Shown: positions 1 to 32,000, counted from the stretch's first letter. The stretch is 32,000 nucleotides of DNA from Candidatus Saccharimonadota bacterium (GCA_965227835.1 OZ245768.1:780001-812000); one strand, 5' to 3'. The notes: generated from the letters alone by a model not told the origin. Program-made: numbers and translations.

Positions 1-642
1 GAATGAATTATTTTGGTGAGATAATTGATTGAAGGATGATTTTAAACGAATATGGGAAGATTGCTGAAAAAGAGATTTTAAAAACACCATATATAAGAGA
101 AGAAATAAAAATTGATGAATTTATTATAATGCCAAATCATTTACATTTGATTGTTGTGATTGAAAATGGGGTAAATTTTGGGAATGTGGGGAATGACGGA
201 AATATATCCAATGTGGGGAATGTTTCAAACATGGGGAATGCGGGAAATGTATCCACCGTGAAAAATGTATCCACCATGCCAACCGTAGAACACAGGCCTG
301 CGTTCCCTACGGTTGGGACGTTCATCACGGTTGGGACGTTCACCACGGTTGGAACGTTCACCACAATCATCACAATCCCCCAATTCAATACAAAAAAATT
401 ACCAACAACAAAACCATTACACAAAAAACAAATTATCAAACACAATACAAAGAATAAAATCACAAATAACATTAAACATAAGAAAACAATTAAATGATTT
501 TACATTTAAATGGCAAAAATCATTCTTTGATAAAATTATACGAACAAAAGATCAATTAAATAAAACAAGAAAATACATTATAAACAATCCTTTAAAATGG
601 GAATTTGATGAGAATAACCACAAAAAAAGACCCTCTAATTAG
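1..642 (+). pseudogene. RAYT / IS200-like (Y1 HUH, COG1943-type) transposase-like gene. It is cut at the 5' end by the window edge and needs a +1 frame change.
   Basis: The frame starting at nt 3 reads NYFGEIIDG(TGA)RMILNEYGKIAEKEILKTPYIREEIKIDEFIIMPNHLHLIVVIENG, which contains the HUH motif HLH. The C-terminal family motif FKWQKSFFDKIIRTKDQLNKTRKYIINNPLKWEFDENN lies in the +1 frame and ends at TAG 640-642. That frame is open only from nt 289, so the shift falls between 289 and about 400, possibly at the A7 run near 395-401. The expected catalytic Tyr position (WQxxxY) reads FF. Confidence 0.6.
309..362 (+). repeat. 18-bp tandem repeat, 3 copies (acggttgggacgttca[t/c]c), in the GC-rich variable linker of the RAYT-like gene
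   Basis: The copies are at 309-326, 327-344 and 345-362, differing by 1-2 nt. Upstream, 177-280 also carries the reiterated motifs atgtggggaatg and aaatgtatccacc. Confidence 0.9.
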
Positions 643-663
643 AGAGCCTTTTTATATTTTATC

Positions 664-1548
664 TTACAAAATATTTGAAACATCAGAAGATTTAATTGGC
701 TTTTTCACGAATTGATTGGCACTTGAAAAAGATTGTATATTTTGCTTTCTTTCTCTATTTTTAAGAACATCAAGTCTAATCTCTTTTATCTTGTTCATAG
801 TATCCACGAAATGATCATATTTTTCAGCAATACCACAATAAATAACTCAAAGAGAATATTTACTACATGCTTTTGACTGCTCTATATTATGTTTATTCAA
901 AATCTCAAAACTCTTACAATCTTCATGCAAAGTCTTACTTTCAACTATAACTAAATTCTTTAAATTAACCTCACTTTGTTTAGGATTCCTCAAATTCTCC
1001 ATCCTTATTTGAAAATCAATAGTAAGCCTTTCTTCTCAAACCTTGGAAACAAGAGTTATCCTTTTGTATTTAGTCTTTATAGAAGGGCTTATCTTGGGAG
1101 CTTTTTTTCAATCATAAACAGACTGCCAAACTCATTCAAAAAATCTTTTCTTACCCTTAGTCATAACTCAATGTTCTTGACTGGGAAACTCATACCTATA
1201 TTTTCTAGTTATACCATCTGTCTTATGCTTATATTCAAAAAAAGCTAAATCAGAATCTTTGTATAATCTAGTTCTTATTTTTGTCCTAGAATTAACTCAA
1301 TCTTGATGATTTTTATAAAACAAATAATCAGGTGTATCCATATAAACATTATCATAATTAAAAACTCTTCTATCAGCTATTTCCAAAACTCTAAAATCTT
1401 TCTTAAAATCCTTCAATACCAACTCAAACTCAGAGTTTGTCATTAAAAATTTTCTATCTATTCTTTTTAAAAAACTTGCACTAGCATTTAGTTCAGTAAG
1501 AGTAAGTTTATCAAACTCTTTCAAACTAAAATTAAAAACTTTTTCCAT
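664..1548 (-). CDS. VTC (polyphosphate-polymerase-like / CYTH-like) domain protein
   Basis: ATG at 1548, TAA at 664-666, 294 aa with TGA=Gly. The pattern RIDRKFLM...FRVLEIADRRVFNYDNVYMDTPDYLFYKNHQDG..RTKIRTRLY...FFEYKHKTDGITRKYRY matches bacterial VTC-domain proteins. The standard-code track stops at the first TGA (1297). Confidence 0.6.
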
Positions 1549-1942
1549 TTTTATTTTTGTTTTTGTTAGGAATATAAAATATTTTGTGGAAAAATTTAAT
1601 TCTTTATTGATTAAAATTTTTTAACTAAACTTGAAAAAAGACATTAAAATAACTGCTATAGCAGACATCAAAATATAAATTTATCAAACAAAAGTTAAAA
1701 AGTTACTACAAGAATTTTGAAAAATATTTCTAAATATACTTTCTTTAAAGATATTCTATAGTAATTTTTTTAATTTTAAAGGGAAATAATAAACCTCTCT
1801 TTATCCCACTGATTTATGATATCATACTTAAAAAATACTGTCAAAAAAATAAGGAGAAAAAAATATTTTTCTCCTGAAGAAGTCTATAAAGCAGTGACAA
1901 ATAAAGCAAAAAATAAGTTAAAAAATTTTTTAAAAATGTATT

Positions 1943-2980
1943 CTAATCTTTAATTTCGTTTTCAATTATATTAAGTGGTTCATAAAACTTTTCTAGATTA
2001 AGTCAAATCTTTCTAAGATCCTTGTAGTCTATAAGTTTTTTTTCTAGTTTTATATGTAGATTTTCATCATCTCTTATAATATCACTTCAAAAATTATCTT
2101 TAAAATATTTAGCATTTTCCCGTTGATGATTTCAAGCACTATTTTTTAAAGGTATTATGATAGAGTGCAAACCAAAAATATTTTGTTCCCAGAGAGAAGA
2201 ACCTGCTCTAGTGATAACTATATCTGCTAGTTTTAATATTAATCACAATTCTCTAGGATGAAGAAACTCATAAGTTTTAACATTTTCAAAATTAGAAAAC
2301 TCTTGTTTTAAATGAGAATTTTTACTTCAAAGAATTATTTCAAAATCTAGGAAATCAAGTCTAGGTATAATTTTTAAAAGACCTTCTAAGATATTTTTCG
2401 ATCATTGACTTCATCAAATAAAAAGAACTTTCTGTTTTTGATTTTCTTCTAAATCCAAACTATCTATTGAATCTAGAAGATCAGGGTTTAATATTTGTCA
2501 TGATAGTATGTGCTTAGAACCGTCTATATTCTTATTATCAAAGCTATAAAATACTTTGTCTGCTATTTTGGAAACAATACTATTTGAAATCCCAGATACA
2601 GAATCTGATTCGTGTATTAAAAGTTTCTTTCTCATTAGTTTAGCTCAAATGGAAATGGGTAAAGAAACATATCATCATTTTGAAAAAACTATATCTATTT
2701 TGTATCTTTTGATATAAAACAAAGCTTGAATTATTCAAGTTAGATTTTTTAAAGGTTCATAAAAATTTCTAAAATCAAAATATCTTCTAAGTTTTCAGGC
2801 ACTTATGCAATAAAATTCTATATTTAGTTCCTTTGCTGTTTTTTCTTCTAAACTACCTTCTTCTCAAAACCATAAAAATTTATATTTATTACTATCTGAC
2901 AAATGATTATATAGGGAAACTAGAGGAAACACATGTCATCCAGTAGAGCCTCCAGTCAAGGCTATAGTTTTTTTTATCAT
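1943..2980 (-). CDS. murG: UDP-N-acetylglucosamine--N-acetylmuramyl-(pentapeptide)-pyrophosphoryl-undecaprenol GlcNAc transferase
   Basis: MIKKTIALTGGSTGGHVFPLVSLYN... is the GGTGGH motif, and ...IVITRAGSSLWEQNIFGLHSI is the C-terminal nucleotide-sugar motif. I checked the frame codon by codon: there is no TAA or TAG between 2980 and TAG 1943-1945, and several TGA fall in frame. Confidence 0.9.
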
Positions 2981-3152
2981 GGATGAAAAGTATTAAAAAA
3001 TATGTTTTGGGGATTAAATAGAAATTAAGTATTAGATAAATATCTAAACTTCATTATAAACAAAATAGGCAATAAATAAAATAAAAAATATTATCAAAAA
3101 ATTGCTTTTTTAATAAACTTGGATTTTGAAATATTAAAACTTTATAATTCAT

Positions 3153-3878
3153 ATGAAAGACCAAATAAAAAAAATATTTGAAGAGAATGATATAAAACTA
3201 AAAAAAGAAGAGCTAGAAAAGTTTGGGAGATTTTTAGAAATATTTATAGAGAAAAACTCTCAGATAAACTTGTCAGCTATAAGAGAACCAAGCTGAATAA
3301 TATTGAAACATTTTCTTGATTCAGTAATGCTAAATATATTTATAAATTTTGGGGAACAGCAAATACTAGATAATAGAAAGATAAAAATAGCTGATATAGG
3401 TACCTGATGATGATTTCCTTTAATTCCTTTGGCAATTACAAATGAAAAAATAGATTTTTTATGAATAGATAGTGTATGAAAAAAACTAAAAGCAATAGAT
3501 GAGTTTGTGATAGATTTATGAATAAAAAATATAAAAACTATAAATAAAAGAGCAGAAGATGTATGAAAAGATGAAAAATATAGAGAACAGTTTGATTTTG
3601 TAGTTAGTAGGTCAGTAGCATATCTGCCTACACTTTTAGAATATTCTATTCCCCTTTTGAAAAAGTGATGAATATTTTGTGCATACAAGCTAGATGATAA
3701 AGAAGAACTAAAATCATCAAAAAAAATACTAAAAAAACTACAAACAAAAATAATAAAAGTAAAGAATTATAAGATAAGCTGACAAAAAAGGGTTATAATT
3801 TTTATGGAAAAACTACAAAATACACCAAAGAACTATCCAAGAAAAGTATGAATCCCAAGCTTAAAACCCATCATATAA
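3153..3878 (+). CDS. rsmG: 16S rRNA (guanine527-N7)-methyltransferase
   Basis: MKDQIKKIFEEN...LEKFGRFLEIFIEKNSQINLSAIREP..ILKHFLDS, with the SAM-binding loop KIADIGTGGGFPLIPLA. The GGG of that loop is encoded by three consecutive TGA codons at 3405-3413. TAA at 3876-3878. Confidence 0.9.
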
Positions 3879-4027: not shown

Positions 4028-4330
4028 ATGCCAATAATACAATCTGCAAAAAAACAATTAAGACAAAGCAAAAAGAAAAAAGCTAGAAATGATCATTTTA
4101 AAGCTCTTTTTACAAAAAGTAGAAAATCTTTTGAAAAAGCTATAAAAGAAAATGATTCAAAAAAAGCAAAAGAAATTTTTTTTAATAAAAAAAACAAAGA
4201 GGGAAAAACCGTTTCTTCATGATTGCAATCTATGATTGACAAGCTTTGTAAAAAAAATATTATACATTCCAATAATGCCTCTAGAAAGAAGTCTAAATAC
4301 TCTAATATGCTAAAATCTTTAAAGGCTTAG
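4028..4330 (+). CDS. rpsT: 30S ribosomal protein bS20
   Basis: MPIIQSAKKQLRQSKKKKARNDHF...IDKLCKKNIIHSNNASRKKSKYSNMLKSLKA. One in-frame TGA at 4223. TAG at 4328-4330. Confidence 0.9.
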
Positions 4331-4352
4331 GTTTTAAATTTTAAAAATTTTA

Positions 4353-4889
4353 ATGTCAAATAAGAAAAGATTATTAAATGATGAAATAAGAGCAAGCAGA
4401 GTTCAGGTTATAACTGAAGATTGAGAAAACTTAGGTAATATGAGTATGAATGAAGCTAGAGATTTAGCTTCAAAAAAGCAAATGGATATCATGGAGATGT
4501 GAAGAAATTGAGATTTAACAATAGTGAAAATACTTGATTATTGAAAATATCTCTACAGACAAAAGAAGCTAGACCAAAAAAATAAAAGTAAGTGAAAATC
4601 TCCTGATTTGAAAACAATAAGGATAACATTCAAGATTTGAGAACACGATTTGCAAACTAGAATAAAACAAGCAGTTAAATTTGCAGAACAATGAAATCCT
4701 CTCAAACTAAGTTTAATGCTTAGATGAAGAGAAAATTGTTATTGAGATTTGGCTCAAGAAAAAATGGAAACTTTTATAAATCTCTTGGGAGATTATTACA
4801 AGATAGATTCCCAAATAAAAAGGAATTGAAATATATTTGTAGCAATGTTGAAACCAAAACCTATATCTCAAAAAGATATAAAAAACTAA
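4353..4889 (+). CDS. infC: Translation initiation factor IF-3
   Basis: MSNKKRLLNDEIRASRVQVITEDG(TGA)ENLGNMSMNEARDLASKKQMDIMEM...LRGRE...IFVAMLKPK. It sits in the canonical infC-rpmI-rplT order. TAA at 4887-4889. Confidence 0.9.
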
Positions 4890-4915
4890 AAAATATTTAT
4901 TTAAAATAATTAAAG

Positions 4916-5110
4916 ATGTCACTAAAAACTAGAAGTTGAGTAAAAAAAAGAGTAAAAGTTACTTGATCAGGAAAAGTTAAATTCCAAAAGGCAGGTAAAA
5001 GACACTTGCTTATGAATAAAAATAGAAAAGCTAAAAGGGCTAATAAGTATGGATCTCAAGCATCTCCTAGTGAAGTAAAAAGAATATTAAGACAAATCCC
5101 TTATTTGTAG
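4916..5110 (+). CDS. rpmI: 50S ribosomal protein bL35
   Basis: MSLKTRSG(TGA)VKKRVKVTG(TGA)SGKVKFQKAGKRHLLMNKNRKAKR...; 64 aa; TAG at 5108-5110. Confidence 0.9.
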
Positions 5111-5218
5111 AATATTTTAGAATTTTATTATGAAATAACGAATTTTATAATAATTTAAAAAGTGGTAGTTATTTTTGAGAGTCTATTTTAGCAAAATATA
5201 TTATTTAATTTTATAAAA

Positions 5219-5563
5219 ATGGTTAGAGTTAAAAGAGGTACAATGACAAAAAAGAGACACAAGAAGCTTTTAAAGTCAACGAAAGGGTTTAGATTATTAA
5301 ATTCAAGAGTTTTTTCTAGAGCAAAAAATGCTTGGATGAAAGCATGATTAAATTCTTATATAGGTAGAAAAAAGAAGAAAAGAGATTTTAGGAGACTATG
5401 GAATGTTAGGATAAATAGTTCGGCAAGAGAAAATGGAACCACATATTCCAAATTAATTTCAGATATGTACAAAAAAAGAGTTAAGTTAAATAGAAAAGTT
5501 TTATCAAACTTAGCTATATCAAATCCAAATGTTTTTTCAAATATAGTTTCCTTTGTAAAGTAA
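5219..5563 (+). CDS. rplT: 50S ribosomal protein bL20
   Basis: MVRVKRGTMTKKRHKKLLKSTKGFR...RDFRRLWNVRINSSARENG..YSKLI; TAA at 5561-5563. Confidence 0.92.
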
Positions 5564-5617: not shown

Positions 5618-6109
5618 TTAGGGGAATAACTGAAAAACGAAGTTTTTATAGGCTATTTCCCTTTCTGGAGAAGGTTGGTTGCTATAAATGAATTGATATT
5701 GTAAAAATGAAGGCATACTCTTATGGTTGCTTCTAGTAATTTCAAACAAATTACCAGAACTTGTTTCAGGAAGTGTAAAGGTTTTTTCAGGGAAATTTTG
5801 ATGATTTATTATTATATCCATTGAAAAAAAATTTACTTCACAACTATTAATAATATATCCTTTATAAACAAAACCACCATCCAAAGTTTCTTCGTATTCA
5901 AATATAATACAGTTAACTCCTGTCTCTATGTCTACGAAATGCCATTCTTTGACAGAACAAGGATTATTAGAATTCTCTATATCAACACAAATGGTTCCTT
6001 CAGAAACATCTCTAAATGCTTCATATGAAATATTCTGCTCTGAAGCAGATAATACAAACGATAGAGACAAAGAAATGATTGAAAGAACAACAGATGTAAA
6101 AATTTTCAT
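5618..6109 (-). CDS. Secreted four-cysteine protein, paralog 1 of a three-member family (function unknown)
   Basis: Intact 163-aa ORF with no TGA. It has the signal peptide MKIFTSVVLSIISLSLSFVLSAS/EQ, an AGGAG Shine-Dalgarno site 7 nt upstream, and the conserved motifs F.DIETG.NC and LFEI.RSN shared with 6236-6808 and 8400-8915. Confidence 0.8.
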   Translation of the reverse strand: MKIFTSVVLSIISLSLSFVLSASEQNISYEAFRDVSEGTICVDIENSNNPCSVKEWHFVDIETGVNCIIFEYEETLDGGFVYKGYIINSCEVNFFSMDIIINHQNFPEKTFTLPETSSGNLFEITRSNHKSMPSFLQYQFIYSNQPSPEREIAYKNFVFQLFP

Positions 6110-6235: not shown

Positions 6236-6808
6236 TTATAAATTACAACTCTTTTTAAAATCAAAGCCCGTGCATTTTGCACGGGCTTTTAGAAAATTTA
6301 ATCAAATTTGTTCATAGAGGTTATTTTCTTCTACATCAAAAAGAATTTTTTCATAATCATCAAGTTCACTTGGAGAGGATTCATTGTAATAAAAAAATTC
6401 ATATAAAAGTATAGAATTTAAACCTCTAAAGTTAGATCTTTTAATTTCAAATAAACTATCAGAGCCTAATTCAGGAATTTTAAAAGTCTTTTTAGTCAAT
6501 TTTTGAGTAACAAGTTCATCTTTTTTTGTAATAGGTTTTTCACAACCATAAACATAATAATTATGAGTAAATATGTAATTTGATACAGTATCAATATTAA
6601 CTATTTTACAATTAAATCCTGTCTCTATATCTAAAAAAAGATATTTTTTACTATGGCATGAGGAAAGGTTTTTATCAAGAGAACAAATAATACTTTTTCC
6701 AGGAATTTCCCTAAATGCTTCATCTGAAATATTCTGCTCTGAAGCAGATAATCCAAAAGATAAAAACAAGGAAATGACCGAAAGAACAACAGATGTAAAA
6801 ATTTTCAT
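6236..6808 (-). CDS. Secreted four-cysteine protein, paralog 2. The position homologous to the stop is TGA, so under code 25 the ORF runs on to TAA 6236-6238.
   Basis: MKIFTSVVLSVISLFLSFGLSAS/EQNISDEAFREI... The first ~35 codons and ~110 nt upstream are near-identical to paralog 1 at the DNA level. The standard-code ORF is 6302-6808. The codon at 6302-6304 is TGA, after which 21 more sense codons cross the terminator hairpin. Confidence 0.7.
6263..6290. terminator. Intrinsic terminator hairpin, a copy of the 5584-5610 element
   Basis: aaagcccgtgcattttgcacgggctttt differs by 1 nt from the 5584 copy. It lies just downstream of the standard-code end of paralog 2. Confidence 0.75.
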
Positions 6809-8399: not shown

Positions 8400-8915
8400 T
8401 TATTCTATATAATAAGTAAAAAATTTATTATAAGTATCTTGTTTTAAAAATACTCCTCCATAATAAAAAATTTGATACCGAATAACCATAGGTTCAGTAG
8501 GTATTCTTATTATTCCAAACCAATTATAATGGTTTCCTTCATGAAGAACAAACTCTTTTCCAGTTAAATCAGATGAAGATTCTATTGTAGGTAAATTTTG
8601 AAAATCTTGTCCACATTCTTTAATTTCATATTCATGAAGAGAATAATTTGTAATATCTACAGTCAAAGTTCTGTTATTTATAATACAGAAAAAACCAGTA
8701 TCAATATCATAAAACTTATAAATAGTATCTGTCAGTGTCTGACCACAGGGAACTTCTATTTTAAGATCCCCTATATTATCTTGAAAAGGACAAGCATATA
8801 TAATTTTACTTATTTCACTAAATTCCTTTGCAGTAGTGCTACTTACTTCAGTAAACATTTCTGCATATGAGCCAAAAGAATATAAAAGTAAAACAATAGA
8901 AACAAGAATTTTCAT
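8400..8915 (-). CDS. Secreted four-cysteine protein, paralog 3
   Basis: Intact 171-aa ORF with no TGA. Signal peptide MKILVSIVLLLYSFGSYA/EM. It shares the four Cys positions and the motifs YDIDTGFFCII and IRYQIFYYG with paralogs 1 and 2. Confidence 0.8.
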   Translation of the reverse strand: MKILVSIVLLLYSFGSYAEMFTEVSSTTAKEFSEISKIIYACPFQDNIGDLKIEVPCGQTLTDTIYKFYDIDTGFFCIINNRTLTVDITNYSLHEYEIKECGQDFQNLPTIESSSDLTGKEFVLHEGNHYNWFGIIRIPTEPMVIRYQIFYYGGVFLKQDTYNKFFTYYIE

Positions 8916-9060: not shown

Positions 9061-10253
9061 TACCTGAATTAAACCCCGAAGTGCAATTTTTTAAATGAAC
9101 TTAAAGAAGAAAATATAGCATTAAGAAATTTTTTATTTTTGAGATTATAAAAAATTTTGTTATAATTCCAAATACAACATTAAGATTGTGAAAAGTGTGC
9201 TTGATTAGGGGAAATAAATCAAAGTATTTCTCTAGGAGTATTTGCTAATATATCGCAAATACTTTTTATTTTTTCATCACTTACATAATCAAATATAGTT
9301 CATTTAGGAAAAAATCTCCTGATAATCCTATTTAAATTCTCAATACTTCACTTCTGCCAAGAAGAATAAGGCTCACAAAAGTAAGTATCTATTCATATAT
9401 CATTTAATAAATAATGCTTAGCAAATTCCATTCAATTATCAAAAGTAACAGATTTAATTCATATATCATCTTTAACTCAAGCTATTAGATTAATTATATT
9501 TTCACTTGATTTATCTTTTATTTTAAAAATTTTAGGTAACCTAGTCTTTCTATCAACCAATGTAAGTATAGCTCATTTAAATCATTTTTTAGAAACAATT
9601 AAATCAGCTTCAATATGTCATTTTTCTTCTCTGTTATTTATTGTTTCAGGTCTATTTTTAATACTAACTCTATTTTTAATTTTCACTCTTTCTGTTTGTT
9701 GTTTTTTCTTTCTATAACCTTTATGTTTATATAATAATAGTTCTTTATATTTATTTCACATACCAGTTTCTAGCCAAGAATATATACTTGTATGGGAGAT
9801 ATGTTTCTTTTTATCTGTTTGAGTATTATTCCGTTTCTTAGCAATTGTTTTTGGGGACATTTGTATTTCTGTTATTGATAGTTGTTCTATTATGAAATTT
9901 TTCATATTAGTATTCATATTTATCTTCATTGATTGAGTTTTTGTTAACCATCGTCTTTGATATGATTTGATTTCTGCTTCTAGTGCTAAATATACTTTTT
10001 TATTGTTTCATCGTTTTTTTACTGAATTTCTGTATATCTCTCTGCTTATTGTTGATTCTGATCTTTTTAGTATTGATGCTATATCTTTTTTCTTTAATCA
10101 TTTATTTAAATGAAATTCAATACTTTCTCTCTCTTGGAATATTAATTGTCAGTACATATCTTATTATATTAGAAAATAATGTTATTACCCTACGGGGAAT
10201 ACTATATTTTCTTCTCTTTTAATTGCACTTCATTTCTTACTTTGGGTTAGGTA
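9061..10253 (-). mobile_element. IS30-family insertion sequence (about 1.19 kb) with imperfect terminal inverted repeats
   Basis: The left end tacctgaattaaaccccgaagtgcaatt (9061-9088) matches the reverse complement of the right end aattgcacttcatttcttactttgggttaggta (10221-10253). They share TACCT, AACCC and an exact GAAGTGCAATT core. The element encloses a DDE transposase gene. Confidence 0.75.
9180..10157 (-). CDS. IS30-family DDE transposase
   Basis: MYG(TGA)QLIFQERESIEFHLNKG(TGA)LKKKDIASILKRSESTISREIYRN...GHIEADLIV...LTLVDRKTRL...TFDNGMEFAKH...CEPYSSWQKGSIENLNRIIRRFFPKGT...ANTPREILGF. 325 aa, with about a dozen in-frame TGA. TAA at 9180-9182. Confidence 0.9.
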
Positions 10254-11671: not shown

Positions 11672-13111
11672 TTATCAAAAAAACCTAGAAAGGTATAATA
11701 TTACCAAGTAAGTTATAGAAGCTATAATTCAAGCAACTGGTAAAGTTACGACCCAAGAAAGTAAAATTCATTTTAGTTTTGATTTTTCTATAACTGATTT
11801 ATTTTTCCCTTCGTTTAATGTTAAATGCTGTCTATAAAGACCTATACCAAAAACTCAACCCAAAGCTATTTGAGTAGTGGAAACAGGCATTCACATAGCA
11901 GAAGCTATTATTACAGTTATAGCTGCTGATAAAGCTATACAATATGCCCTTATTTGATTAAGTTTTGTAATTTCATTTCAAACTGTTTTTATTAATCTAG
12001 ATCAAAAAACAGCCAATCATAAAGAAAGAAATAAAGCTCCCAGAATCATTATCCAAGAAGCTATTCAAACTTTTGAAGAAGTATCCATAATATCAATTCA
12101 TGAATTTTTCACAGAATCATAGACAGCTGCCAAAGGTCAAATAGCATTTGCTACATCATTTGAACCATGAGCAAAACTCAAAAGTGCTACAGCAAAAATT
12201 AGAGGTAAGTTAAATAATTTGTTGATAAACTTCTTTTTATCTTTGAAAAAAGAACTTTTTTGTTTTTTGAAATGGACTATAAGTAGTGCATAAGATAAAA
12301 ATCAAATCACACAAGAAACAAAAATGGCAGTGGTAGTAAAATCAAATCAATATGTATTTAAAAAATCCCTAGCAAAACCAAGTTTGTTTTTAAATCATTT
12401 AAGTATTAAATAAAGAGAAAAAACACAAATCATTATAGAAACATAGATAGGGACCCAAAGTTTTGCTGCTTCTCACCTATCCTGCTGATTTAATATATTT
12501 CTTCTAATAGATATAAATATAGCTATTGAGATAAAAGCTCCCATAAAAATAGCTACAATCCAAGCTAAAGCAACTTTTGAAACCATTCCCCAGTTTACTA
12601 TTGAGAGTCAGCTTGATGTAATTCAAGCTCATATCAAACCTCAAAATATAGCATGAGTAATAGAAACTGGAGCTTTAAAAAAAGTAGCTGTATTTACCCA
12701 GATAGCTGCTCAAAGTAAAGTAGCAAGCATTATAGCTATAAATTCTATTGAAGTTTTATCTATCATATTGGGATCAATTATTCAACCTTTTATGGTATCA
12801 ACTACATCTCATCAAGCTATAAGAGCTCAAGCAGCTTCAAAAATCATTGCTATTGTGATAGCTCATCAAAGAGTTAAAGCTTTGGCTCAAACTGCTGGTC
12901 ACATATTGTTTGCCACATCATTGGCTCATAGATTTATGGCCATATAAATAGCAAAAATTGTAGCAAGCATTAAATAAATATGAAGATTCTCATCTATACT
13001 TGGAAGTTCGAAGAAATAAACATATCCTATAAAAAATATACATGCCACAGCAAGAAGCACATATTTTAAATTTGAGATATATTCATTTTTTATATTTAAA
13101 GTTATTTTCAT
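11672..13111 (-). CDS. Inorganic phosphate transporter, PiT (PHO4) family
   Basis: It has two copies of the family signature: G(TGA)ANDVANNMG(TGA)PAVG and HGSNDVANAIG(TGA)PL. It is polytopic and hydrophobic, 479 aa. I read the frame through with no TAA or TAG. TAA at 11672-11674. Confidence 0.88.
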
Positions 13112-13467: not shown

Positions 13468-13550
13468 CCCCTCTCCTACCAAAAGGAGAGGGGCTGGTGG
13501 TGAGGTTTATAAGGAAATGGCTCTCAAGTGAGGTTTATAGGGAAAGGGTG
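13468..13550. repeat. GC-rich REP-like element: one hairpin plus two direct repeats
   Basis: Hairpin cccctctcc-taccaaaa-ggagagggg (13468-13493), followed by gtgaggtttata[a/g]gga(a)a[t/g]gg at 13500-13520 and 13528-13550. It is a sharp GC-rich island in AT-rich intergenic DNA. Confidence 0.6.
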
Positions 13551-13596: not shown

Positions 13597-14334
13597 CTAT
13601 TTTTTAAAACTTTCAAGTATTTCTTTTGCTATATCTTTTCATCAAAGACCAAAGGCTAAACCTCAAGCAATAGTAAGCATTGCTATAAATCAAGTTAAAA
13701 TAGTATCTATTATAGTTTGATCAACAAGCTTAGTATAGTTTAAAACAACTATAAGTGTGAAAAAAAGTATTATAACCTTAGCTCAAACAGCAAGTACTTT
13801 GGATAAAGATTCTTGTTTAGCTATATTCATAGAATGATATATTATATCATGTATAAAATTGGCAAACCTAATACCAAAAAATAAAACTATTATTCATATA
13901 AAAAGACTTGGTAGATAATTAAGTAAATCATCCAAAAAAGTCTCAACTTCATTTGTAAATTTAGTAACTGACCACCTAAAAAAAAGTAGGAATACATAAT
14001 AAGAAAAAGCCTTTCCTACGACTTGATCTATCTTTATTTTTTTACCAAAAACTTCACTAAATTTCTTTTTTGTTTTTTTGTTTTTTACATTTTGTTTGCT
14101 TGAATCATCTGTTTCAAACTCTATACTGAATTTATCAATAAGTTCCATTATTTTGAATTTTTTGAATAAAAATACAACAAACCTATAGATAAAAAGAGAT
14201 ATAATAAATCAAATAATAAGTATTATAATCGACCAAAATATATCTGGTCATTTTTCAATCAGAAAATCTTGCATACCTCAAAAAATTTGATCTTTTATCT
14301 TTAAACTGTTTTCTTTTACATTTAATTCTATCAT
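13597..14334 (-). CDS. Small multi-pass membrane protein resembling 'conserved TM helix' / MscS-associated proteins
   Basis: MIELNVKENSLKIKDQIFGG...; 245 aa. The C-terminal ...FIAMLTIAGGLAFGLGGKDIAKEILESFKK resembles the TM_helix repeat signature. TAG at 13597-13599. The start overlaps the ruvX stop by 1 nt. Confidence 0.45.
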
Positions 14335-14756
14335 TATTTCATATTATTAGATAAATAAGTTTCCAAAATAAGAGCAGCCGAAATAGCATCTTTTGGGAGA
14401 GGTTTATATTTTTTTCAAAAAGCAGATAAGATATTTTCAGCTTCAAAACTAGTAAACCTTTCATCAACTCCTATAATTTGGATTTTATTCTCTAGTTTTG
14501 ATTTTTTTCAAAATTTATTTTCAAGTTCTCTTTTAAACTCATTTGTTTTATTAAGCTGTATCTTATCTTTTCAATATAGATCATAAGGCAGTCATAATAT
14601 TATTTTGTCTATATCTATATGTTTTTGAAAATATTTTTGAAGTATTTCTATGATTTTTGTTCTTAAAACTACCTCTTTAGGGATAGCTACACCTTGAATT
14701 TCAAGAGCTATTCAACATTTTTTATCTCAATAATCTATTGCTATTGCTCTAGTCAT
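14334..14756 (-). CDS. ruvX: Holliday-junction-resolvase-like pre-16S rRNA nuclease YqgF/RuvX
   Basis: [10 protein letters not shown](TGA)DKKCG(TGA)IAL...ILG(TGA)LPYDLYG(TGA)K...IIGVDERFTSFEAE...AISAALILETYL; 140 aa. Confidence 0.85.
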
Positions 14757-15204: not shown

Positions 15205-15470
15205 TTTTTTGATTAATTTTGTAAATTAAAAATATTATATTTATATAAAGATATAGTTCAATATGTTTTTAAGGAAAGGCTGAAGAATTCCTTAATTATA
15301 ATAAATAGCTTTTTATTGACATATAAATAAAAACATTTAATATATCTTAGTAAATTTGATAAACACAAAATTAAAAAATTATGATACAGGTAAATATTCA
15401 AGAAAATAATTACAATTTTTCTCAAGTAAAATATATAGTATATCAACTTTGAGAGTTGATAATAGATAAT

Positions 15471-16380: not shown

Positions 16381-16381
16381 T

Positions 16382-18495: not shown

Positions 18496-19161
18496 ATGCA
18501 AAAATCATATATTCCCAAAGCTTCCCAAGAAGAGTTTTGTGATTGAATTAATCTATGTAGTGTAAGGAAATGAAAAGACTGAATCTCAAAAATTTGAATA
18601 AAAGATTTATCATGAAATATCAAGGAAGATATATTGGAAAATATTATAAATTCTGATACTTACAATTGAAAAGATATTGTTAGAGTTTATTCGTCATGAC
18701 ATGTTTTTTTAAGTGAAAACAAAGAGAATGTTTTTCTTGTTACAACAGAAAAAAATTGAAAAATTCAACATCAATTTACTTGATGAAGTCCACTAGAAGA
18801 AGAAAACAAAGAAGTTATATATCAAAAAGATTGAGTTTACAAATTTGACATTGAAAAAGTTAGGATAAATGCAAAAATTAGAACTAAAAATAGAACATGA
18901 GTTGATGTATTGGAAGACTACAACGAGAATCCTCTAGTTGATTGGGCACTTATGGAAAATGAAGAAAATTGAATAATATATTACAAACTTGTTTGCTTAA
19001 TGCATTTTGTAGTAAAGAAATATGAATGAATATTATCTTTTTCTTGAGAAGAATACACTATATGATGAAAATGGTATAAAATTGATGATTTACCAAATAT
19101 ACAATTGGTTGCACCAAATGCATATATTGTCAGCAAAGAAGCTTTAAAAATAATAAATTAA
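18496..19161 (+). CDS. Hypothetical protein (221 aa)
   Basis: ATG at 18496, TAA at 19159-19161. The frame is continuous with about 20 TGA=Gly codons. No recognisable motifs. Confidence 0.55.
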
Positions 19162-19255
19162 GGGAGCATCTAAAAAATTCATATTATTCTTTTTAAAAGA
19201 TTTCTAATCTTATTTAAGTAGGGGCTAATATTTTTCAAAAATCATTTTTATTTTT

Positions 19256-19395
19256 AGTAGACAAAGAGCTATTAGCTCTTTGATCTTATATCTTCGTCAA
19301 CAGAAGGCTTTAGCCTTTTGATTTTTAATAGACAAACAGCTAAAGCTCTTTGTCTATTAAAATTTCGTACAAAACTATGCTTTAGCTCTTTTTCT
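19256..19395. repeat. Cluster of four related hairpin repeats (CAAAGAGCT..AGCTCTTTG family)
   Basis: caaagagctattagctctttg (19262-19282), cagaaggctttagccttttg (19301-19320), the long hairpin taatagacaaacagctaaagctctttgtctatta (19328-19359), and gctttagctcttt (19379-19391). The lead-in ta[g/a]tagacaaa[g/c]agct is shared at 19256 and 19328. Confidence 0.7.
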
Positions 19396-19901: not shown

Positions 19902-19994
19902 TGGAGGAAGGGAGGGGATTCGAACCCCCGGTACAGCAAAAACCATACACACGCTTTCCAAGCGTGCTCCTTAAACCACTCGAGACACCCTTCC
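19902..19994 (-). tRNA. tRNA-Ser (anticodon GGA) with a long variable arm and an encoded CCA
   Basis: The reverse complement is GGAAGGGTGTCTCGAGTGGTTTAAGGAGCACGCTTGGAAAGCGTGTGTATGGTTTTTGCTGTACCGGGGGTTCGAATCCCCTCCCTTCCTCCA. Acceptor GGAAGGG/CCCTTCC; anticodon stem CACGC/GCGTG with loop TTGGAAA; T-loop GTTCGAATC. Confidence 0.88.
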
Positions 19995-20145: not shown

Positions 20146-20787
20146 AGTGATTAATAGTATTAAAAAGATTAAACCAATAGTGCTTTTTTGACTCATATAT
20201 TCAAAGAGTGCCATTGCTGAAACAAAATTAAGTTGCGAGAAAATATTTGATTATGATAACACTAAACTCTATGAAGAAGATTTATGAAGATACCAAGAAA
20301 TAGTTGATAATTTTATTAGTATAAACGTTATAAAATTCAAAGAGTGATTCTTAAATATGTATTTTTCAATTGAAAATCAAAAATGATTTTTTATTGGTAA
20401 AAATTGAGATATAAAATACATATTTGATATATCATCTGGAAATTCTGGTTTGTGAGGATTAAATTTTGATACTCCAAAAAATATCATAATAGATAAATCA
20501 GAAAATAAGTGGCATCAATATGCAGTAGAATCAGATGAATGAAAGTTTGGAGAAATATGAAGTATTATACTAAGTTTATGAGAATTTTACCAGGACAAAG
20601 AGTGATTTTTTTGAATAGAAGGGCAGATATATCAAGTAAAAGAAAATAAATGAAAAAAATATATAAAGAGAAATAGTTGAAGAAACTATACTCTCCCATA
20701 TTGATGAAATTTATTTTCATCAATACATACTACGACAAATTATGGAATAAGAAGATTATGAGAAAGGGTGTCAAGTTGATGTATTAG
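20146..20787 (+). CDS. Hypothetical secreted protein (213 aa); probable GTG start
   Basis: (V/M)INSIKKIKPIVLFG(TGA)LIYSKSAIAE is a signal-peptide-like N-terminus. I read the frame codon by codon from 20146 to TAG 20785-20787, with many TGA=Gly. The stop codon lies inside the IS5 target-site duplication. Confidence 0.55.
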
Positions 20788-20788
20788 A

Positions 20789-21994
20789 GGGACCTCTGCA
20801 ATATTGTTGAAAAGAACAAGAAAAAAGTGATTTTGAATAAAAATCACTTTTTTTGAAGAATATATAAGATAATTTCTATGAATTATGCCTTTTTTTAGGT
20901 ATAATTTCCAAATTTAGGCACAATTCACCTATTAGAAAGCTATATATACCTCCTTGCCAATAGTTCAAAATTATAAATAGCACAAGATAAAAACCAGTGC
21001 ATAGCATTCTTAACTAATCATCTATATCTTGTTTTATAATTTCAATATTTAGCCTTTAAAATAGAAAAAGGATGTTCTACTCTTGCCCTAATAGTAGATT
21101 TAATTCTATTTTGTTCTTTTTGATAAGAAGTCAACGGATTATTTCTAGATCATCTTTCATTGAACTCTCACTTAATTCATAACTCATCTAAAAATTTTAT
21201 TTTATCTTTACTTATATAGGCACTATCTCAATATGCCTCTTCACTCTCATCTCAAGTAATTAAAGTATCAGATAATTGTGAATCATGTATCTTAGCTGTC
21301 GTATATGTTGTATTCATTACAAAGTCTCCTCTCTTTGTTGTTTCAATATGAGCTTTATATCAATGATAACTTCTTCAATTCTTCTTTGTAAAACTAGCTT
21401 CCTTATCTCTTGTATTTTCTCATTTATTATTCTTTCTTCATTTTGGTGATTCTATTATAGTACCATCTTGAATAAATCACTTTTCTACTGTAAATCACAT
21501 TTCAGCTAAAATAAATTGAGTCATTGTAAATATAGTTTCCTGACTTCAGTTTTCTGATAATTCATTTCTAAATCTACATATTGTTGTTTCATCTGGTATA
21601 TCTTTAGATTCAGATATTCATAGAAACTTTTGAAAGCTATTTCTGTCTCTTATTTGATCTTCTATTTCCGGATCTGATAATCCATATAGTCATTGAAGAA
21701 ATAGTATTTTTAACATTTTTTGTATTTCCATTCTTGGTCTTCAAACTCATCAATCTGATATTTCTCTAGATAAATTAATTTTATTTGATATTGATTCCCA
21801 TGGGACTACTTTATCTAATTTTGTTAGAAACTTTTCTGTTCTTGTAATTCATAACTCATTTTGGAAATAATTCAAAAATGTTTGTTGTTCTTTAAATGGT
21901 GACATAATCATTAAAAAAAAATTAAAATATTTATCATATTTTAATCTTTTTATTATATTTTTGTAATTTAAATCTATCTTTTTGCAGAGGTCCC
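20789..21994 (-). mobile_element. IS5-family insertion sequence (1206 bp) with 13-bp perfect inverted repeats and a 4-bp TAGA target duplication
   Basis: GGGACCTCTGCAA at 20789-20801 matches the reverse complement of ttgcagaggtccc at 21982-21994. It is flanked by TAGA at 20785-20788 and 21995-21998. Confidence 0.85.
20940..21905 (-). CDS. IS5-family DDE transposase
   Basis: MSPFKEQQTFLNYF...GGVGRPRMEIQKMLKILFLQGLYGLSDPEIEDQIRDRNSFQKFLG...PDETTICRFRNEL...IQDGTIIESP...YHGYKAHI...TTAKIHDS...YGDSAYIS...RARVEHPFSILKAKYG.YKTRYRGLVKN. 321 aa, many TGA=Gly. Confidence 0.9.
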
Positions 21995-22828: not shown

Positions 22829-25435
22829 ATGATAAATGAAATACTTACAAAAATATTTGGAGATCCAAGCGAAAAAAAAGTAAGAATGTATGAGAGAAAA
22901 ATAGAAGAAATAAAAAAATCAGAAGAAAAATTCTCCAATTTTTCAAAAGATGATATAAAAAAGAAAACTCTAGAATTCAAACAAAAGTTTGAATGATTAA
23001 ATTTTGAAAACTGAGAAGATAAAGAAAAAATAACGGATATACTAGAAGAAATAAAATACGATGCCTTTGCTCTAGTAAAAACAGCATGTAAACTAATATA
23101 TGAGAAAGAATTTGAACTAAAAGAAGGAAAAAAAATTATATGGAATATGATACCCTATGATGTGCAATTGGTTTGAGCTCTAGCCATACACGAATGAAAT
23201 ATAGCTGAAATGAAAACCTGAGAATGAAAAACCCTAGTAGCAACAATGCCTGCTTATTTAAATTCACTAACTTGAAACCCAGTACATATAGTAACAGTCA
23301 ATGATTATTTAGCTAAAAGAGACTCTGAAGAAATGTGAATACTCTATGAAACTCTATGACTTACAGTATCTTTTGTAACTCATGATCAATCAAAACAAGA
23401 AAAAAAAGAAAGCTATAAAAAAGATATAGTGTATGCAACAAATAATGAACTTGGTTTTGATTATTTGAGGGATAATATGGTTATAAAAAAAGAAGACAAA
23501 ACCCAATCAAAACTATTTTTCGCAATAATAGATGAAGTTGATTCTATATTGATAGATGAAGCGAGAACACCTCTTATAATATCAATGCCCGATAATGAGC
23601 CTACAAGTAAATATATACAATTCGCACAAATAGCTAAAATGCTTGAAAAAACAAAAGATTATAAAATAGATGAGAAACAGAAAACAGCAACTCTTACAGA
23701 AGAATGAATACTTAAAATAGAAAAATTATTAAATGTAGAAAACATATATGTGTCTGAAAACTACAATGACCTACATCATATAGAAAATGCTATAAAAGCT
23801 CAATGAGTATACATAAAAGACAAAGACTATATAGTATCAAATAATGAAGTAAACATAGTAGATGAACATACTTGAAGGGTACTTTCTGGAAGAAGATATA
23901 GTGATTGATTACACCAAGCTATTGAAGCAAAAGAATCAGTAGATATAAAACAAGAATCAAAAACACTTGCAAGCATTACATTTCAAAATTATTTTAGAAT
24001 GTATCAAAAACTTTCTTGAATGACTGGTACAGCTAAAACAGAAGAAGAAGAATTTTATAAAGTATACTGACTTGAAACATTAGTTATTCCAACAAATAAA
24101 CCGACAATCCGTGAAGATAGAGATGATTTATTGTTTAAGAATGAAAAAGGTAAGTTTGATTATACAGTAAAACTTATAAAAGAAATTAATGAAACAGGTA
24201 GACCTGTGCTTGTATGAACTGTATCTGTGGATAAATCTGAATATATAAGTGATATTTTGATGAGAAATAAAGTGAGACACAATGTTTTAAATGCCAAATA
24301 TCACGAAAAAGAAGCTGAAATAATAAGAGAAGCTGGGCAAAAATGAGCTGTAACCATAGCTACAAATATGGCATGAAGATGAACAGATATAAAACTATGA
24401 GAAGGAGTAGCTAAGCTTTGATGATTATTTATAATAGGTAGCGAAAAACACGAAACAAGAAGAATAGACAATCAGTTAAGATGAAGAGCTGGTAGACAGT
24501 GAGATCCATGAACTACACAATTTTTGGTATCTCCAAGTGATGATATTATGAGAATATTTGGATGAGATAAAATGTTTTGATTATTCAATTCTCCATTTTT
24601 TTCAAGCTTACCGGATGATGAACCTTTACCTAGCTGACAAAGAATGCTTACAAGCAAGATAACAAGTGTTCAAAAACAAGTGGAATGACACAATTTTGAT
24701 ATTAGAAAACATGTGCTTGAATATGATGATGTGATAAATAAGCATAGAGATGTAATTTATTATAAAAGAAATAAGATAATTGATAGTGAGAATATTGATG
24801 AGGATGTAAAAGAAATGATAAATTCTCAAGTAAAAAAGCTTGTAATTTCGCAGTACAGCAAAGACTATAATTTGGATAAAGAGAAGCTAATAGAAAGAGT
24901 TAATCAGTTTTTGGAGTCAGATGTAATAACAGACAAAAAAGAAATATATGATATTTGTTCCATAGAAACTGGTGAAGATTCTGCAAAATACATATCTGAT
25001 ATAGCAATGAGAGAATTTGAAAAAATAAAAGATAAAGCTTCATGAGAAGAAGAATTTTTTGAATTAGAAAGAAAGATAGTTTTATCTTCTATTGATGAGT
25101 TATGGATGAGGCATATTGATTCTATGAGTAGGCTAAGGGAAGATGTGGCATTTGAATGATATGCCCAAAGACAGCCTTTGATAGTGTACAAAGAGAAGGC
25201 ATATATGAAATTTGAAGAAATGCTTTGAGAGTTGGAGTATAAGATTACAAAGATAATTTTTGCACTTGATAAAAGTGAGAATATAGAAAATATAAGCAGT
25301 AGAAAGGAATCTGTTTTTGATTCACAGTATATAAATGTATGAGTAGCCTATGAAAGTAATCCCTTATTTGCAAAACCTAGAAAATCACAAAATAGAAGAC
25401 CTCCTAGTAAAAAGAAGAATAAAATAAGAGTTTAG
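22829..25435 (+). CDS. secA: Preprotein translocase ATPase SecA
   Basis: [18 protein letters not shown]...[38 protein letters not shown]. The two Gly of the Walker A GEGKT are TGA at 23219 and 23225. Also [34 protein letters not shown] and TFQNYFRMY. 868 aa; TAG at 25433-25435. Confidence 0.95.
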
Positions 25436-25585: not shown

Positions 25586-25981
25586 ATGGATACTCTTATA
25601 ATTCTATTTCTTATTGCTTGCTTGATTGTACCTATTATTATATATGAAATTGTGAACCATTTTCAAAAAGGAGGAAAAGAGAAAGAAAATATAGTAGAAG
25701 AAAAAAAAGATATAACAAATGAGGTAATGGGGGAAGACTCTAACAGTAGTTTTCATCCTAGCATCTTAATTCCAATAGGTTTTGTATTAGTTCTGGTTGC
25801 ACTTATGATTGGAGCTACACAAGGTCCTACTGCGTCTGAAAAAGGAAAAATAGTGGTATATTTCATATTAGGATATTTTGGTTTTGCTATTGGTGCTGCT
25901 GTTATATTAACAACCATATTTTTTTTTATTGAAAAAATAACAAAAAAAAGGGGGAAAGAAAAGCAAGCTCAAACATGCTAG
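25586..25981 (+). CDS. Small three-TM membrane protein (131 aa) ending ...KQAQTC; cassette 1
   Basis: Intact ORF with no TGA (11 Gly, all GGN) and a strong GGAGG Shine-Dalgarno site. It shares about 40 nt of 5' flank and about 80 nt of 3' end and terminator with the cassette at 26241. Confidence 0.7.
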   Translation: MDTLIILFLIACLIVPIIIYEIVNHFQKGGKEKENIVEEKKDITNEVMGEDSNSSFHPSILIPIGFVLVLVALMIGATQGPTASEKGKIVVYFILGYFGFAIGAAVILTTIFFFIEKITKKRGKEKQAQTC

Positions 25982-26240: not shown

Positions 26241-26543
26241 ATGAAAGACAAAACATTTCGGAAAAAAGTTTGTAGGTATTTAGAATGTATTTTTAAAACT
26301 CAGACAGTAGGTGTAATGCCTGGTTTAGTAACAGTTTTACATATCTGTTACCTATACTTTGAAGGTCTAGATTTGTCTCTAGGAAGTAAGATGTTTGTTG
26401 GTTGTTTACTAACTATGTTTTGTGTTTGGATTACATATATTGTTCTAAATTGGATTTTAGAAGATATAAAAAAGTTAGTAAAAGAAGACGAAAAAAGGGA
26501 AGAACAGAATCTCTATCAAGAGATAAAAGCTCAAACATGCTAG
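26241..26543 (+). CDS. Small two-TM membrane protein (100 aa) ending ...IKAQTC; cassette 2
   Basis: Intact ORF with no TGA and a GGAGG Shine-Dalgarno site. The last codons and the following 30 nt (gctcaaacatgctagaaaaaactctagtcatatagagcttca) are identical to cassette 1. Confidence 0.7.
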   Translation: MKDKTFRKKVCRYLECIFKTQTVGVMPGLVTVLHICYLYFEGLDLSLGSKMFVGCLLTMFCVWITYIVLNWILEDIKKLVKEDEKREEQNLYQEIKAQTC

Positions 26544-27241: not shown

Positions 27242-29755
<2,514 letters not shown>

Positions 29756-30140: not shown

Positions 30141-30506
30141 ATGACTATATGTAAAAAAAGCCTAGCTATATCTGTCTTAGTAGCTATTCTATGCCATTTT
30201 CTATTCGCTTTACCTATAAGTTCCGAAGCACCAAAATTCTTCATATTTGTACATGATAATATTACAATACCTCTTTGGGTGTGTATAATTGGATGTGGAA
30301 TATTATTTGGGATTCCAGAAAAAAAATCTTCCTCAGATAATTTTAAATTGCTTCTGGGATTTATTCTTGGAGGAACCCTTGGATTTATTCTTGGAGGAAC
30401 CCTTGGATTTATTCTTGGAGGACCCCTTGGATTTATTCTTGGAGGAACCCTTGGATTTGTTCTTGGATTTATTCTTGGATGGTCTCTAGGAGAAAAATTT
30501 AATTAA
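30141..30506 (+). CDS. Small membrane protein (121 aa) with a signal/TM N-terminus and a tandem GFILGGTL glycine-zipper repeat
   Basis: MTICKKSLAISVLVAILCHFLFALPISSEA..., then (GFILGG[T/P]L)x4 followed by GFVL-GFIL-GWSL. It has 19 Gly codons and none is TGA. TAA at 30504-30506. Confidence 0.75.
   Translation: MTICKKSLAISVLVAILCHFLFALPISSEAPKFFIFVHDNITIPLWVCIIGCGILFGIPEKKSSSDNFKLLLGFILGGTLGFILGGTLGFILGGPLGFILGGTLGFVLGFILGWSLGEKFN
30357..30479 (+). repeat. 24-bp tandem repeat (ggatttattcttggaggaaccctt), 4 full copies plus degenerate 12-bp half units
   Basis: Units are at 30357, 30381, 30405 and 30429. They are in frame and encode the glycine zipper. The track ORF 30289-30489 is the out-of-frame reading of the same repeat. 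Confidence 0.9.
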
Positions 30507-30580
30507 GCAATAAGCTAACATTTAAAAATCCATAGGAATTATGATTAAATATTTTTTAACTTAGGTTTCAAAAGCTAGGC

Positions 30581-30614: not shown

Positions 30615-30714
30615 ATATTAAAATCTAAAAAAGACTTTTTTTCTTCAAAATATTAATTTTTCAATCCTTTATTAAATATAAAAAACACAAAAACTTTTTG
30701 AAAAAAACTTTTTT

Positions 30715-30947
30715 TAGTTAAAGTTAGTACTAATTAAAAGCATTTGAGTTTCGCTATCACGAAACAAGGCTGGAGAAAGAAAGTTTTTAATAAAAACAAG
30801 TAGAATCTCCCGAAGGTGAAATACTTCGTTAAAAAAATAAAATTGAGTACAAGCTTTTTGGTGGTAACTTCCAAAAATTAAGGAGAGATCTCTCAATAAC
30901 TTTGGACCTAAAAGCACACAAATTATATGTTTTTTGTGTGTTTTTTA
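30715..30947 (+). ncRNA. Candidate structured leader / cis-regulatory RNA ending in an intrinsic terminator directly upstream of the mazF-like gene. The class is not identified.
   Basis: No plausible ORF exists in any + frame. There are successive local hairpins: gtttcg/cgaaac (30747-30764), gttttt/aaaaac (30783-30797), cgaag/cttcg (30811-30828), tttttgg/ccaaaaa (30855-30877) and gagag/ctctc (30882-30894). The terminator cacacaaa/tttgtgtg plus T6 is at 30915-30947, followed 15 nt later by GAGGAGG and ATG 30971. Confidence 0.4.
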
Positions 30948-30970
30948 TTTTTTGATTTTGAGGAGGAAAA

Positions 30971-31390
30971 ATGAATTATGTAAATGAACTTAAAAATTGG
31001 TTTGAAGAAAAAATAAAGATAAATGAAAAATATATAAACTTTGAGTATAGGTATAAAAAGTGAGATATATGGTATGCAAATTTATGAATAAATATATGAA
31101 ATGAATTTAATAAAGTTAGGCCTGTATTGGTATTAACAAATAATAAATTTTCAAGATGAAATAACATTATAATAATACCAATTACAAGTTTAAAATCTGA
31201 AAAAAGAATACTAAACACAGATATAATAATTGATACAAAATTTGGTAAAAGACAAAGATCAATTATGAGAATTAACCATTTGAAAGATATTTCTAAAAAA
31301 AGACTTATAAAGAAAGTATGAAGAATAGATGATGATACTCTAAATAGACTGGGTATAAAATTAAAGCTATTGTTTGATATTAGAGAATAA
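30971..31390 (+). CDS. PemK/MazF-family endoribonuclease toxin-like protein (139 aa); no adjacent antitoxin gene recognised
   Basis: ...YKKG(TGA)DIWYANLG(TGA)INIG(TGA)NEFNKVRPVLVLTNNKF...IIIIPITSLKSEKR...RQRSIMRINHLKDISKKRLIKKVG. This is the G-D-I-W...G.E....RPvlVl...v.PiTS pattern of the family. TAA at 31388-31390. Confidence 0.75.
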
Positions 31391-31538
31391 AAAATGCCCT
31401 ACCAAATTGATAGGACTAGACTTCTTAGAGTCAAACAAAAATGAAAGCAAGAGCTTTCTAGTTCTCTTAGGAACAATGCAATTATAACACTTTTTACAAA
31501 AAAACAAAACTTTTTTAAATCTTAACTTTATTTTACCT

Positions 31539-32000
31539 ATGTTCCCAAAAGTAGACCCAAAACAATCTTTTCCAGAACTTGAAGAAGAAATATTGAAATT
31601 CTGGAAAAAAGAAAACATATTTGAAGAATCTATAGAAACTAGATCAAAAGATAATCCATATAGATTTTATGATTGACCTCCTTTCATAACAGGTACACCT
31701 CATTATTGAAGTCTTTTATCAAGTATATGCAAAGATGTAGTACCAAGATATTGGACTATGCAAGGTAAAAGATGTGAAAGAGTATGGGGATGGGATTGTC
31801 ACTGATTACCTATAGAAGAAAAAGTACAAAAAAAACTATGACTAGAATCAAACAAAGATATAGAAAAAGTATGAGTAGAAAAGTTTATACAAGAATGTTA
31901 TAGCTATACCAAAAATACATCAGCAGAATGGGAATGGTATGTGGATCATATTTGAAGATGGGTTGATTTCAAAAACTCATATAAAACAATGGATCAAGAT
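31539..32000 (+). CDS. ileS: Isoleucyl-tRNA synthetase (eukaryote-like type 2), 5' part; continues beyond the window
   Basis: [32 protein letters not shown]...YRFYDG(TGA)[11 protein letters not shown](TGA)[28 protein letters not shown](TGA)LPIE. Confidence 0.88.

Follow-up and report, generated by a model that had tools for sequence, protein, structure and literature searches.

UGA is translated in the stretch of DNA analysed here (OZ245768.1:780001-812000 of assembly GCA_965227835.1; 32,000 nucleotides, all of which we call the window), and the residue that it specifies is glycine. We put at roughly 0.97 the probability that UGA is an ordinary glycine codon of this organism and indeed its main one, that only UAA and UAG stop translation, and that the organism uses translation table 25. 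A preliminary description of the window, based on its sequence, had proposed this recoding and had rightly presented it as known: UGA = Gly dates from 2013 and has its own table at NCBI, so it is no new discovery. In practice it matters because the window can be read correctly only with it. The rest of the window depends on it, as that description also held, because table 11 (the standard code) breaks the genes and table 4 (UGA = Trp) misassigns residues, and the public proteins of the source genome are mistranslated.

The reading frames themselves are the first line of evidence. The window is AT-rich (26.2% GC). If TGA is counted as a stop, the stop-to-stop open reading frames (ORFs) of at least 100 amino acids span 30% of the window and the longest has 210 amino acids; if only TAA and TAG are counted, ORFs of up to 874 amino acids appear, and the 31 genes defined in this way together make up 79% of the window. 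The standard-code ORF track had been called misleading, and so it is: among its ORFs of at least 40 amino acids, the 868-residue SecA is represented by three plus-strand fragments (55, 92 and 110 amino acids) and accompanied by eleven spurious antisense ORFs. Each TGA was translated as X before Pfam searches and alignments, so that no residue was presumed. Pfam matches obtained with these masked proteins include SecA, GyrA, NusA, MurG, RsmG, IF3, S20, L20, L9, RuvA and RuvX; a PiT transporter and asparaginase-family, inositol-monophosphatase-family, HATPase_c and VTC proteins; and three transposases, a MazF toxin and the N-terminus of a class I aminoacyl-tRNA synthetase.

In frame, the 6,772 codons of the 22 genes with Pfam support include 310 TGA but not a single TAA or TAG, in line with the earlier claim that the genes are broken by TGA alone; the counts in the remaining two frames of these genes are 380 and 298 for TAA and 266 and 162 for TAG. 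Every one of the 30 complete genes ends in TAA (20) or TAG (10), and the conserved genes are intact when TGA is read as a sense codon, as expected if only TAA and TAG terminate here. Could these genes nevertheless be pseudogenes under the standard code, or products of an assembly with systematic G-to-T errors? All the long genes are indeed broken under table 11. Decay or sequencing error is unlikely, however, because TAA and TAG are spared in frame while the off-frames are rich in them; moreover, independent assemblies of relatives have TGA in the same columns, and protein conservation is intact over full lengths. The chance of either explanation is negligible.

Alignments then show what residue TGA stands for. 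Ten E. coli K-12 orthologs were aligned to the masked window proteins, and at the 133 aligned TGA positions E. coli has Gly 75 times, Ala 14 times, Ser 7 times and neither Trp nor Cys at any of them, against a background of 6.9% Gly and 0.7% Trp in these alignments. In a control in which several codon classes were masked together, TGA fell on Gly in 57% of cases (68/120), GGN on Gly in 71% and AGA on Arg in 54%; the TGG, AGA, GAA and AAA codons behaved as in the standard code. For GyrA a wider comparison was made. The query of this representative search was the database copy, which has W at the TGA sites and therefore biases the search against glycine. It returned 150 proteins, and 99 diverse standard-code proteins of 750-950 amino acids, 39-49% identical to the window GyrA, were kept. 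In this set Gly makes up 69.8% of the residues in the 37 TGA columns, close to the 73.0% in the 19 GGN columns and far from the background of 6.8%. In 31 of the TGA columns it is the majority residue, and in 16 it reaches at least 90%; Trp is below 5% in every one. Finally, in 16 ortholog families drawn from the window and 84 related loci (85 sources in all), TGA lies on Gly-consensus columns in 836 of 899 cases and TGG on Trp-consensus columns in 112 of 127. The alignment of TGA positions to orthologs that the preliminary description had proposed as a check has thus been carried out, and the assignment of UGA to glycine survives it.

The TGA codons also spell the glycines of well-known motifs, and every coordinate that had been given for them proved exact and in frame (residues in brackets below are encoded by TGA). 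In the Walker A motif of SecA, TGA at 23219-23221 and 23225-23227 gives EMKT[G]E[G]KT, where E. coli has EMRTGEGKT. The S-adenosylmethionine (SAM) loop of RsmG has TGATGATGA at 3405-3413, giving DIGT[GGG]FP against DVGTGPGLP in E. coli. On the minus strand, GyrA has TGA at 29387-29389, 29378-29380 and 29366-29368, giving DGQ[G]NF[G]SMD[G]D against DGQGNFGSIDGD in E. coli. The asparaginase-family protein has T[GG]T, YD[G]I and FT[G]S opposite MGGT, YDGI and FTGS of a solved L-asparaginase, and the G1 and G2 boxes of the HATPase_c protein read DN-G-K-G and G-ST-G-L-G-L with TGA as Gly. In the helix-hairpin-helix motifs of RuvA, GIGGK and GIGKK stand opposite GVGPK and GIGKK of E. coli (I[G]I[G]KK versus PGIGKK).

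Tryptophan is the obvious other meaning of a reassigned UGA. It is the one used, under table 4, by Mycoplasma and several insect endosymbionts; the users include the Mycoplasmatales, Hodgkinia, Zinderia, Nasuia and others, and loss of release factor 2 (RF2) is the proposed route. The likeness is considerable, for in both systems UGA is reassigned in an AT-rich, reduced genome with a proposed RF2 loss, and table 4 gives exactly the same ORFs as table 25. Furthermore, the public GyrA of the source genome has W at all 37 TGA sites, and 99 of 119 related entries are similar. What differs is the residue. No TGA falls on Trp among the 133 positions aligned to E. coli, and none of the GyrA columns reaches 5% Trp, which excludes table 4 as had been claimed. 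Under table 4, Trp would make up 5.1% and Gly 1.8% of the proteome; table 25 gives 0.55% Trp and 6.4% Gly, and the E. coli orthologs have 1.1% and 7.2%. The decoding tRNA of the lineage, moreover, has glycine acceptor identity. As for the database entries, their W residues come from table-4 translation, which reproduces such entries exactly when it is applied to related DNA; they are a choice of the pipeline. That UGA means Trp here is therefore extremely improbable.

The same entries are informative about the recoding itself. The public entry identical to the window GyrA at every unmasked residue is one of three protein entries of the source genome considered here (P0001, P0121 and P0272), whose contig, in NCBI and ENA, has 1,489,121 bp. 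The window GyrA has 119 relatives at 69-80% identity (P0002-P0120), of which 99 look table-4 translated, with about 4.1% W and 3.4% G, and 20 have 0.8% W and 7.2% G. Most of the window's GyrA TGA columns hold only G or W in these relatives, and TGA and GGN therefore interchange freely; the single true TGG column of GyrA has W in 117 of the 119. In the public entry for the inositol-monophosphatase-family protein (264 amino acids), 20 of the 21 Trp residues derive from TGA. The public proteins of the source genome, made with table 4, have about 5% of their residues wrongly given as Trp, including catalytic glycines of Walker A, SAM-binding and helix-hairpin-helix motifs, and structure predictions, homology searches and motif calls based on such entries carry the error onward.

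TGA accounts for 310 of the 431 Gly codons (72%) and for 4.6% of all codons. Is UGA then always read as glycine, or is it dual, being mostly Gly yet still a stop at some gene ends, or else recoded by readthrough or selenocysteine insertion in place of a dedicated tRNA? Every ORF extends to the first TAA or TAG that follows, so the sequence alone is compatible with termination at UGA, and the PiT and RuvA genes do end in TGA followed immediately by a stop. About 1.4 such endings per 30 genes are expected by chance, however, at a TGA frequency of 4.6%. Genes with 33-37 UGA codons have too many to be sustained by readthrough, and selenocysteine is disfavored by the absence of TGA opposite Cys and by the Rfam search, whose only match in the window is a tRNA and which detected no SECIS (selenocysteine insertion sequence) element. 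Neither process can explain a codon that makes up 4.6% of the total and aligns to Gly. The lineage, besides, is one without RF2: its gene, prfB, was detected in none of the BD1-5 genomes available to a 2019 study (PMC6851277). Nothing supports a residual stop function of UGA at some gene ends, and a dual or context-dependent UGA is very unlikely.

How glycine comes to be inserted at UGA can be proposed from what is found in the lineage. A dedicated tRNA-Gly(UCA) resembling GCGGGGGTAACATAAAAGAGTGAGTGTACTAAGGCTTCAACCC..., with the elements G1:C72, C2:G71, G3:C70 and U73, would read the codon; termination at UGA would have been lost along with RF2; and strong AT mutation pressure would have driven GGA to TGA until TGA was dominant. 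Three published results bear on this proposal. UGA = Gly has been proven by proteomics in BD1-5, according to the citation of Hanke 2014 in PMC6851277. The program Codetta assigned UGA to Gly for 13 of the 15 species of Gracilibacteria and all 6 of Absconditabacteria that it covered (PMC8629427), and in the two exceptional Gracilibacteria species prfB is present and the tRNA absent (PMC8629427).

We scanned one genome per species from 185,579 species with a pattern consisting of a GCG...CGCU acceptor stem and a UCA anticodon, and obtained at least 120 matching loci. Among the matches listed, 96 have a tRNA(UCA) confirmed by ARAGORN; 84 of these 96 are in loci below 45% GC, and most of those 84 loci are labelled Gracilibacteria, Absconditabacteria, 'Peribacteria' or Patescibacteria. 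The 24 listed loci with an unconfirmed tRNA all have at least 45% GC, belong mostly to unrelated phyla and are probably chance matches. The informative point of the scan is the confinement of the matches listed to the clade so labelled. Two conserved types of tRNA-Gly(UCA) occur among the matches listed (loci L008-L127): a 79-nucleotide Gracilibacteria type (67 loci), which has an unusually long D-loop and an encoded CCA, and a 74-nucleotide Absconditabacteria type (25 loci) without the CCA. ARAGORN calls both of them tRNA-SeC. The 79-nucleotide type often adjoins a gene for a small, basic, TGA-poor protein starting MANSHGL.

Several points weigh against the glycine recoding, or at least against this account of it. 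In the first place, neither ARAGORN, with normal or relaxed settings, nor Rfam found a tRNA(UCA) in the 32-kb window, and BLAST with 40-odd tRNA-Gly(UCA) sequences of the lineage found nothing similar there. Second, the glycine acceptor elements were part of the scan pattern, and their presence in the matches is accordingly not independent evidence. Finally, the window has small genes nearly devoid of TGA, which a simple recoding model does not predict. The source genome is absent among the scan matches listed, and prfB is not among the genes annotated with Pfam in the 32-kb window. Synteny did not place the tRNA either, since both neighborhoods in which relatives carry it are rearranged in the window: in 26 related loci tRNA-Gly(UCA) adjoins the gene orthologous to 13597-14334, which is not so in the window, and the closest locus, whose SecA is 76% identical, has it downstream of ruvA at a distance of about 500 nucleotides, a spot at which the window has an IS5-type transposase.

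The preliminary description had placed the window with the Gracilibacteria and Absconditabacteria. Placement in the Gracilibacteria is upheld by the 119 relatives of GyrA, of which all those named are Candidatus Gracilibacteria, and by SecA, which is 76% and 66% identical to the SecA of loci bearing the Gracilibacteria-type tRNA-Gly(UCA). These protein comparisons support assignment to the UGA-recoded Patescibacteria (Candidatus Gracilibacteria or BD1-5 at NCBI, class JAEDAM01 in GTDB). Table 25, the SR1/Gracilibacteria code, is reportedly owed to Campbell 2013, Rinke 2013 and Hanke 2014. The window resembles it in having UGA = Gly and only UAA and UAG as stops, in low GC, small genome, heavy use of TGA and Gracilibacteria relatives. 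For UGA there is no difference; what sets the window apart is high TGA use, with 64-72% of Gly codons being TGA against a median of 37% in the 84 related loci plus the window, and one CGG that hints at an extra change.

That CGG raises a second question of code. CGN codons are nearly extinct in the window, with 10 in the approximately 7,500 codons of its 31 genes; in the three closest relatives, some 19,700 codons include no CGG, and two of the three lack CGN altogether. CGG has been inferred by Codetta to mean Trp in Absconditabacteria and some Gracilibacteria, and both CGA and CGG in Absconditabacteria (PMC8629427). The window resembles these systems in its near loss of CGN and in a core-gene CGG, at 16017-16019 in the inositol-monophosphatase-family gene (15381-16175, plus strand), which when masked aligns with E. 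coli SuhB at the invariant Trp of its WDxAAG motif; it differs in offering a single informative site. At the WDxAAG Trp, the four relatives of this protein known from Gracilibacteria all have TGG. In the lineage ortholog families, Trp-consensus columns account for 3 of 21 CGG codons and 4 of 75 CGA codons, compared with none of 933 AGA, AGG, CGT and CGC codons.

Of the four CGG codons in the window, the one just described is on an invariant Trp, and the others, in an orphan gene, in a transposase and in murG, are uninformative. The column of the last (2120-2122) has H, Q, F, F, R, Y and Y in seven homologs (six metagenome loci and E. coli), and so leans aromatic, and T, T and K in solved structures; it is therefore too variable to decide. 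The four CGA codons are all within insertion sequence (IS) elements and none was seen on a Trp column; in the IS200 transposase, CGA occupies a position at which the family motif presumably has Arg, which would be another difference from the Absconditabacteria. A tRNA(CCG) was not found in any related locus retrieved. On these sequence comparisons it is a toss-up whether CGG has been captured for Trp on top of table 25, and the odds are about even that the CGG at 16017-16019 is instead a single TGG-to-CGG missense change or a base error. 'Table 25' may accordingly fall short of the whole code here, a suspicion that comes from one CGG at an invariant Trp. If the capture is real, a second reassignment, of a sense codon, would be stacked on UGA = Gly. 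To our knowledge CGG = Trp in Gracilibacteria is in no official table and has been shown experimentally by no one.

The features of the window, with their in-frame TGA codons where counted, are as follows.

664-1548, minus strand: VTC-domain protein, 6 TGA
1943-2980, minus strand: murG, 16 TGA, with the motif GGSTG-G-HVFP and CGG at 2120-2122 in a variable column
3153-3878, plus strand: rsmG (GidB), 12 TGA, including the three consecutive TGA of the SAM loop
4028-4330, plus strand: rpsT
4353-4889, plus strand: infC, 10 TGA
4916-5110, plus strand: rpmI, its product L35 encoded between IF3 and L20
5219-5563, plus strand: rplT
5618-6109, 6236-6808 and 8400-8915, minus strand: three paralogous small secreted ORFs, 1 TGA among 24 Gly codons
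7102-8334, plus strand: HATPase_c (histidine-kinase-like) protein, 20 TGA, with TGA in the G1 and G2 boxes
9180-10157, minus strand: IS30-like transposase, TGA in 14 of 16 Gly codons
10265-11575, plus strand: asparaginase-family protein, 24 TGA
11672-13111, minus strand: PiT/PHO4 phosphate transporter, 29 TGA
13597-14334, minus strand: membrane protein with an MscS-type helix, 9 TGA
14334-14756, minus strand: ruvX
14749-15204, minus strand: rplI
15381-16175, plus strand: inositol-monophosphatase-family protein, 264 amino acids, 20 TGA, with the CGG at the WDxAAG Trp
16382-17476, minus strand: nusA, 14 TGA
19902-19994, minus strand: tRNA-Ser(GGA), the sole tRNA in the window
20940-21911, minus strand: IS5-type DDE transposase, TGA in 20 of 23 Gly codons
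22075-22674, minus strand: ruvA, 14 TGA, with TGA in the GIGxK motifs
22829-25435, plus strand: secA, 868 amino acids, 33 TGA
25586-25981 and 26241-26543, plus strand: two small membrane ORFs with C-termini and 3' flanks in common, no TGA among 16 Gly codons
26636-27073, minus strand: IS200-type Y1 transposase, TGA in 6 of 7 Gly codons
27242-29755, minus strand: gyrA, 837 amino acids, 37 TGA
30971-31390, plus strand: MazF/PemK-type toxin, 5 TGA
31539-32000, plus strand: N-terminus of a class I aminoacyl-tRNA synthetase (IleRS-like), 6 TGA, continuing past the window end

The use of glycine codons is bimodal: in most genes 60-100% of the Gly codons are TGA, and the five small ORFs (5618-6109, 6236-6808 and 8400-8915 on the minus strand, 25586-25981 and 26241-26543 on the plus strand) have 1 TGA among 40. 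The +2 frame of four of the five has 4-17 TGA, and GC at third codon positions is as low as elsewhere. Translation with the standard code would leave these ORFs unchanged. Genes of this kind, though few, are more frequent than expected in the 84 related loci plus the window, where 8 of 283 genes are TGA-poor at P<0.001 against 0.3 expected. Pfam and PHROGs gave no match for them, and one of the ORFs matched only itself among 5.8 billion proteins. High expression was considered as a cause and rejected, since the genes for ribosomal proteins and IF3 have an average share of TGA. Gracilibacteria phages that avoid TGA in frame and can be read under either code are on record (PMC10746230); one possibility is that the small ORFs were acquired from TGA-avoiding elements of this sort or from standard-code hosts. 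Another ORF (30141-30506, plus strand), a Gly-rich membrane ORF, has GGN for all 19 of its Gly codons. Within it a 24-bp tandem repeat (4.6 copies, 96% identity, 30357-30467) encodes GFILGGTL repeats.

The 32 kb hold three intact transposases (IS30-, IS5- and IS200-like) and one Y1-like remnant (3-509, plus strand). With TGA making up 86-88% of their Gly codons, the intact transposases are adapted and confined to hosts in which UGA is Gly. In the two closest relatives (loci L139 and L140) the genes for S20, IF3, L35, L20 and GyrA form one contiguous, co-directional block; the window has gyrA 22 kb from the 4028-5563 block and on the opposite strand. The split of this block, together with the broken tRNA-Gly(UCA) neighborhoods, suggests IS-driven rearrangement.

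The inositol-monophosphatase-family gene stands between rplI and nusA in the window. In relatives (loci L129-L132) it is found among NAD-metabolism genes that vary from case to case (NAD synthase, NAD kinase, NAPRTase, nucleotidyltransferase), a clustering that suggests an NAD(P)-related role for the protein.

Two further tandem repeats were noted. One of 18 bp (3.6 copies, 301-364) is inside the Y1-like ORF and, like the 30357-30467 repeat, is GC-richer than its surroundings. The other, of 71 bp (2.1 copies, 78% identity, 19245-19392), is in a stretch of about 1 kb between genes 18496-19161 and 20147-20872, which also contains tRNA-Ser(GGA) and an unannotated ORF. Lastly, the AT-rich spacer downstream of gene 13597-14334 contains a perfect 10-bp GC-rich hairpin, CCCCTCTCCT-ACCAAA-AGGAGAGGGG (13468-13493), which occurs once in the window.

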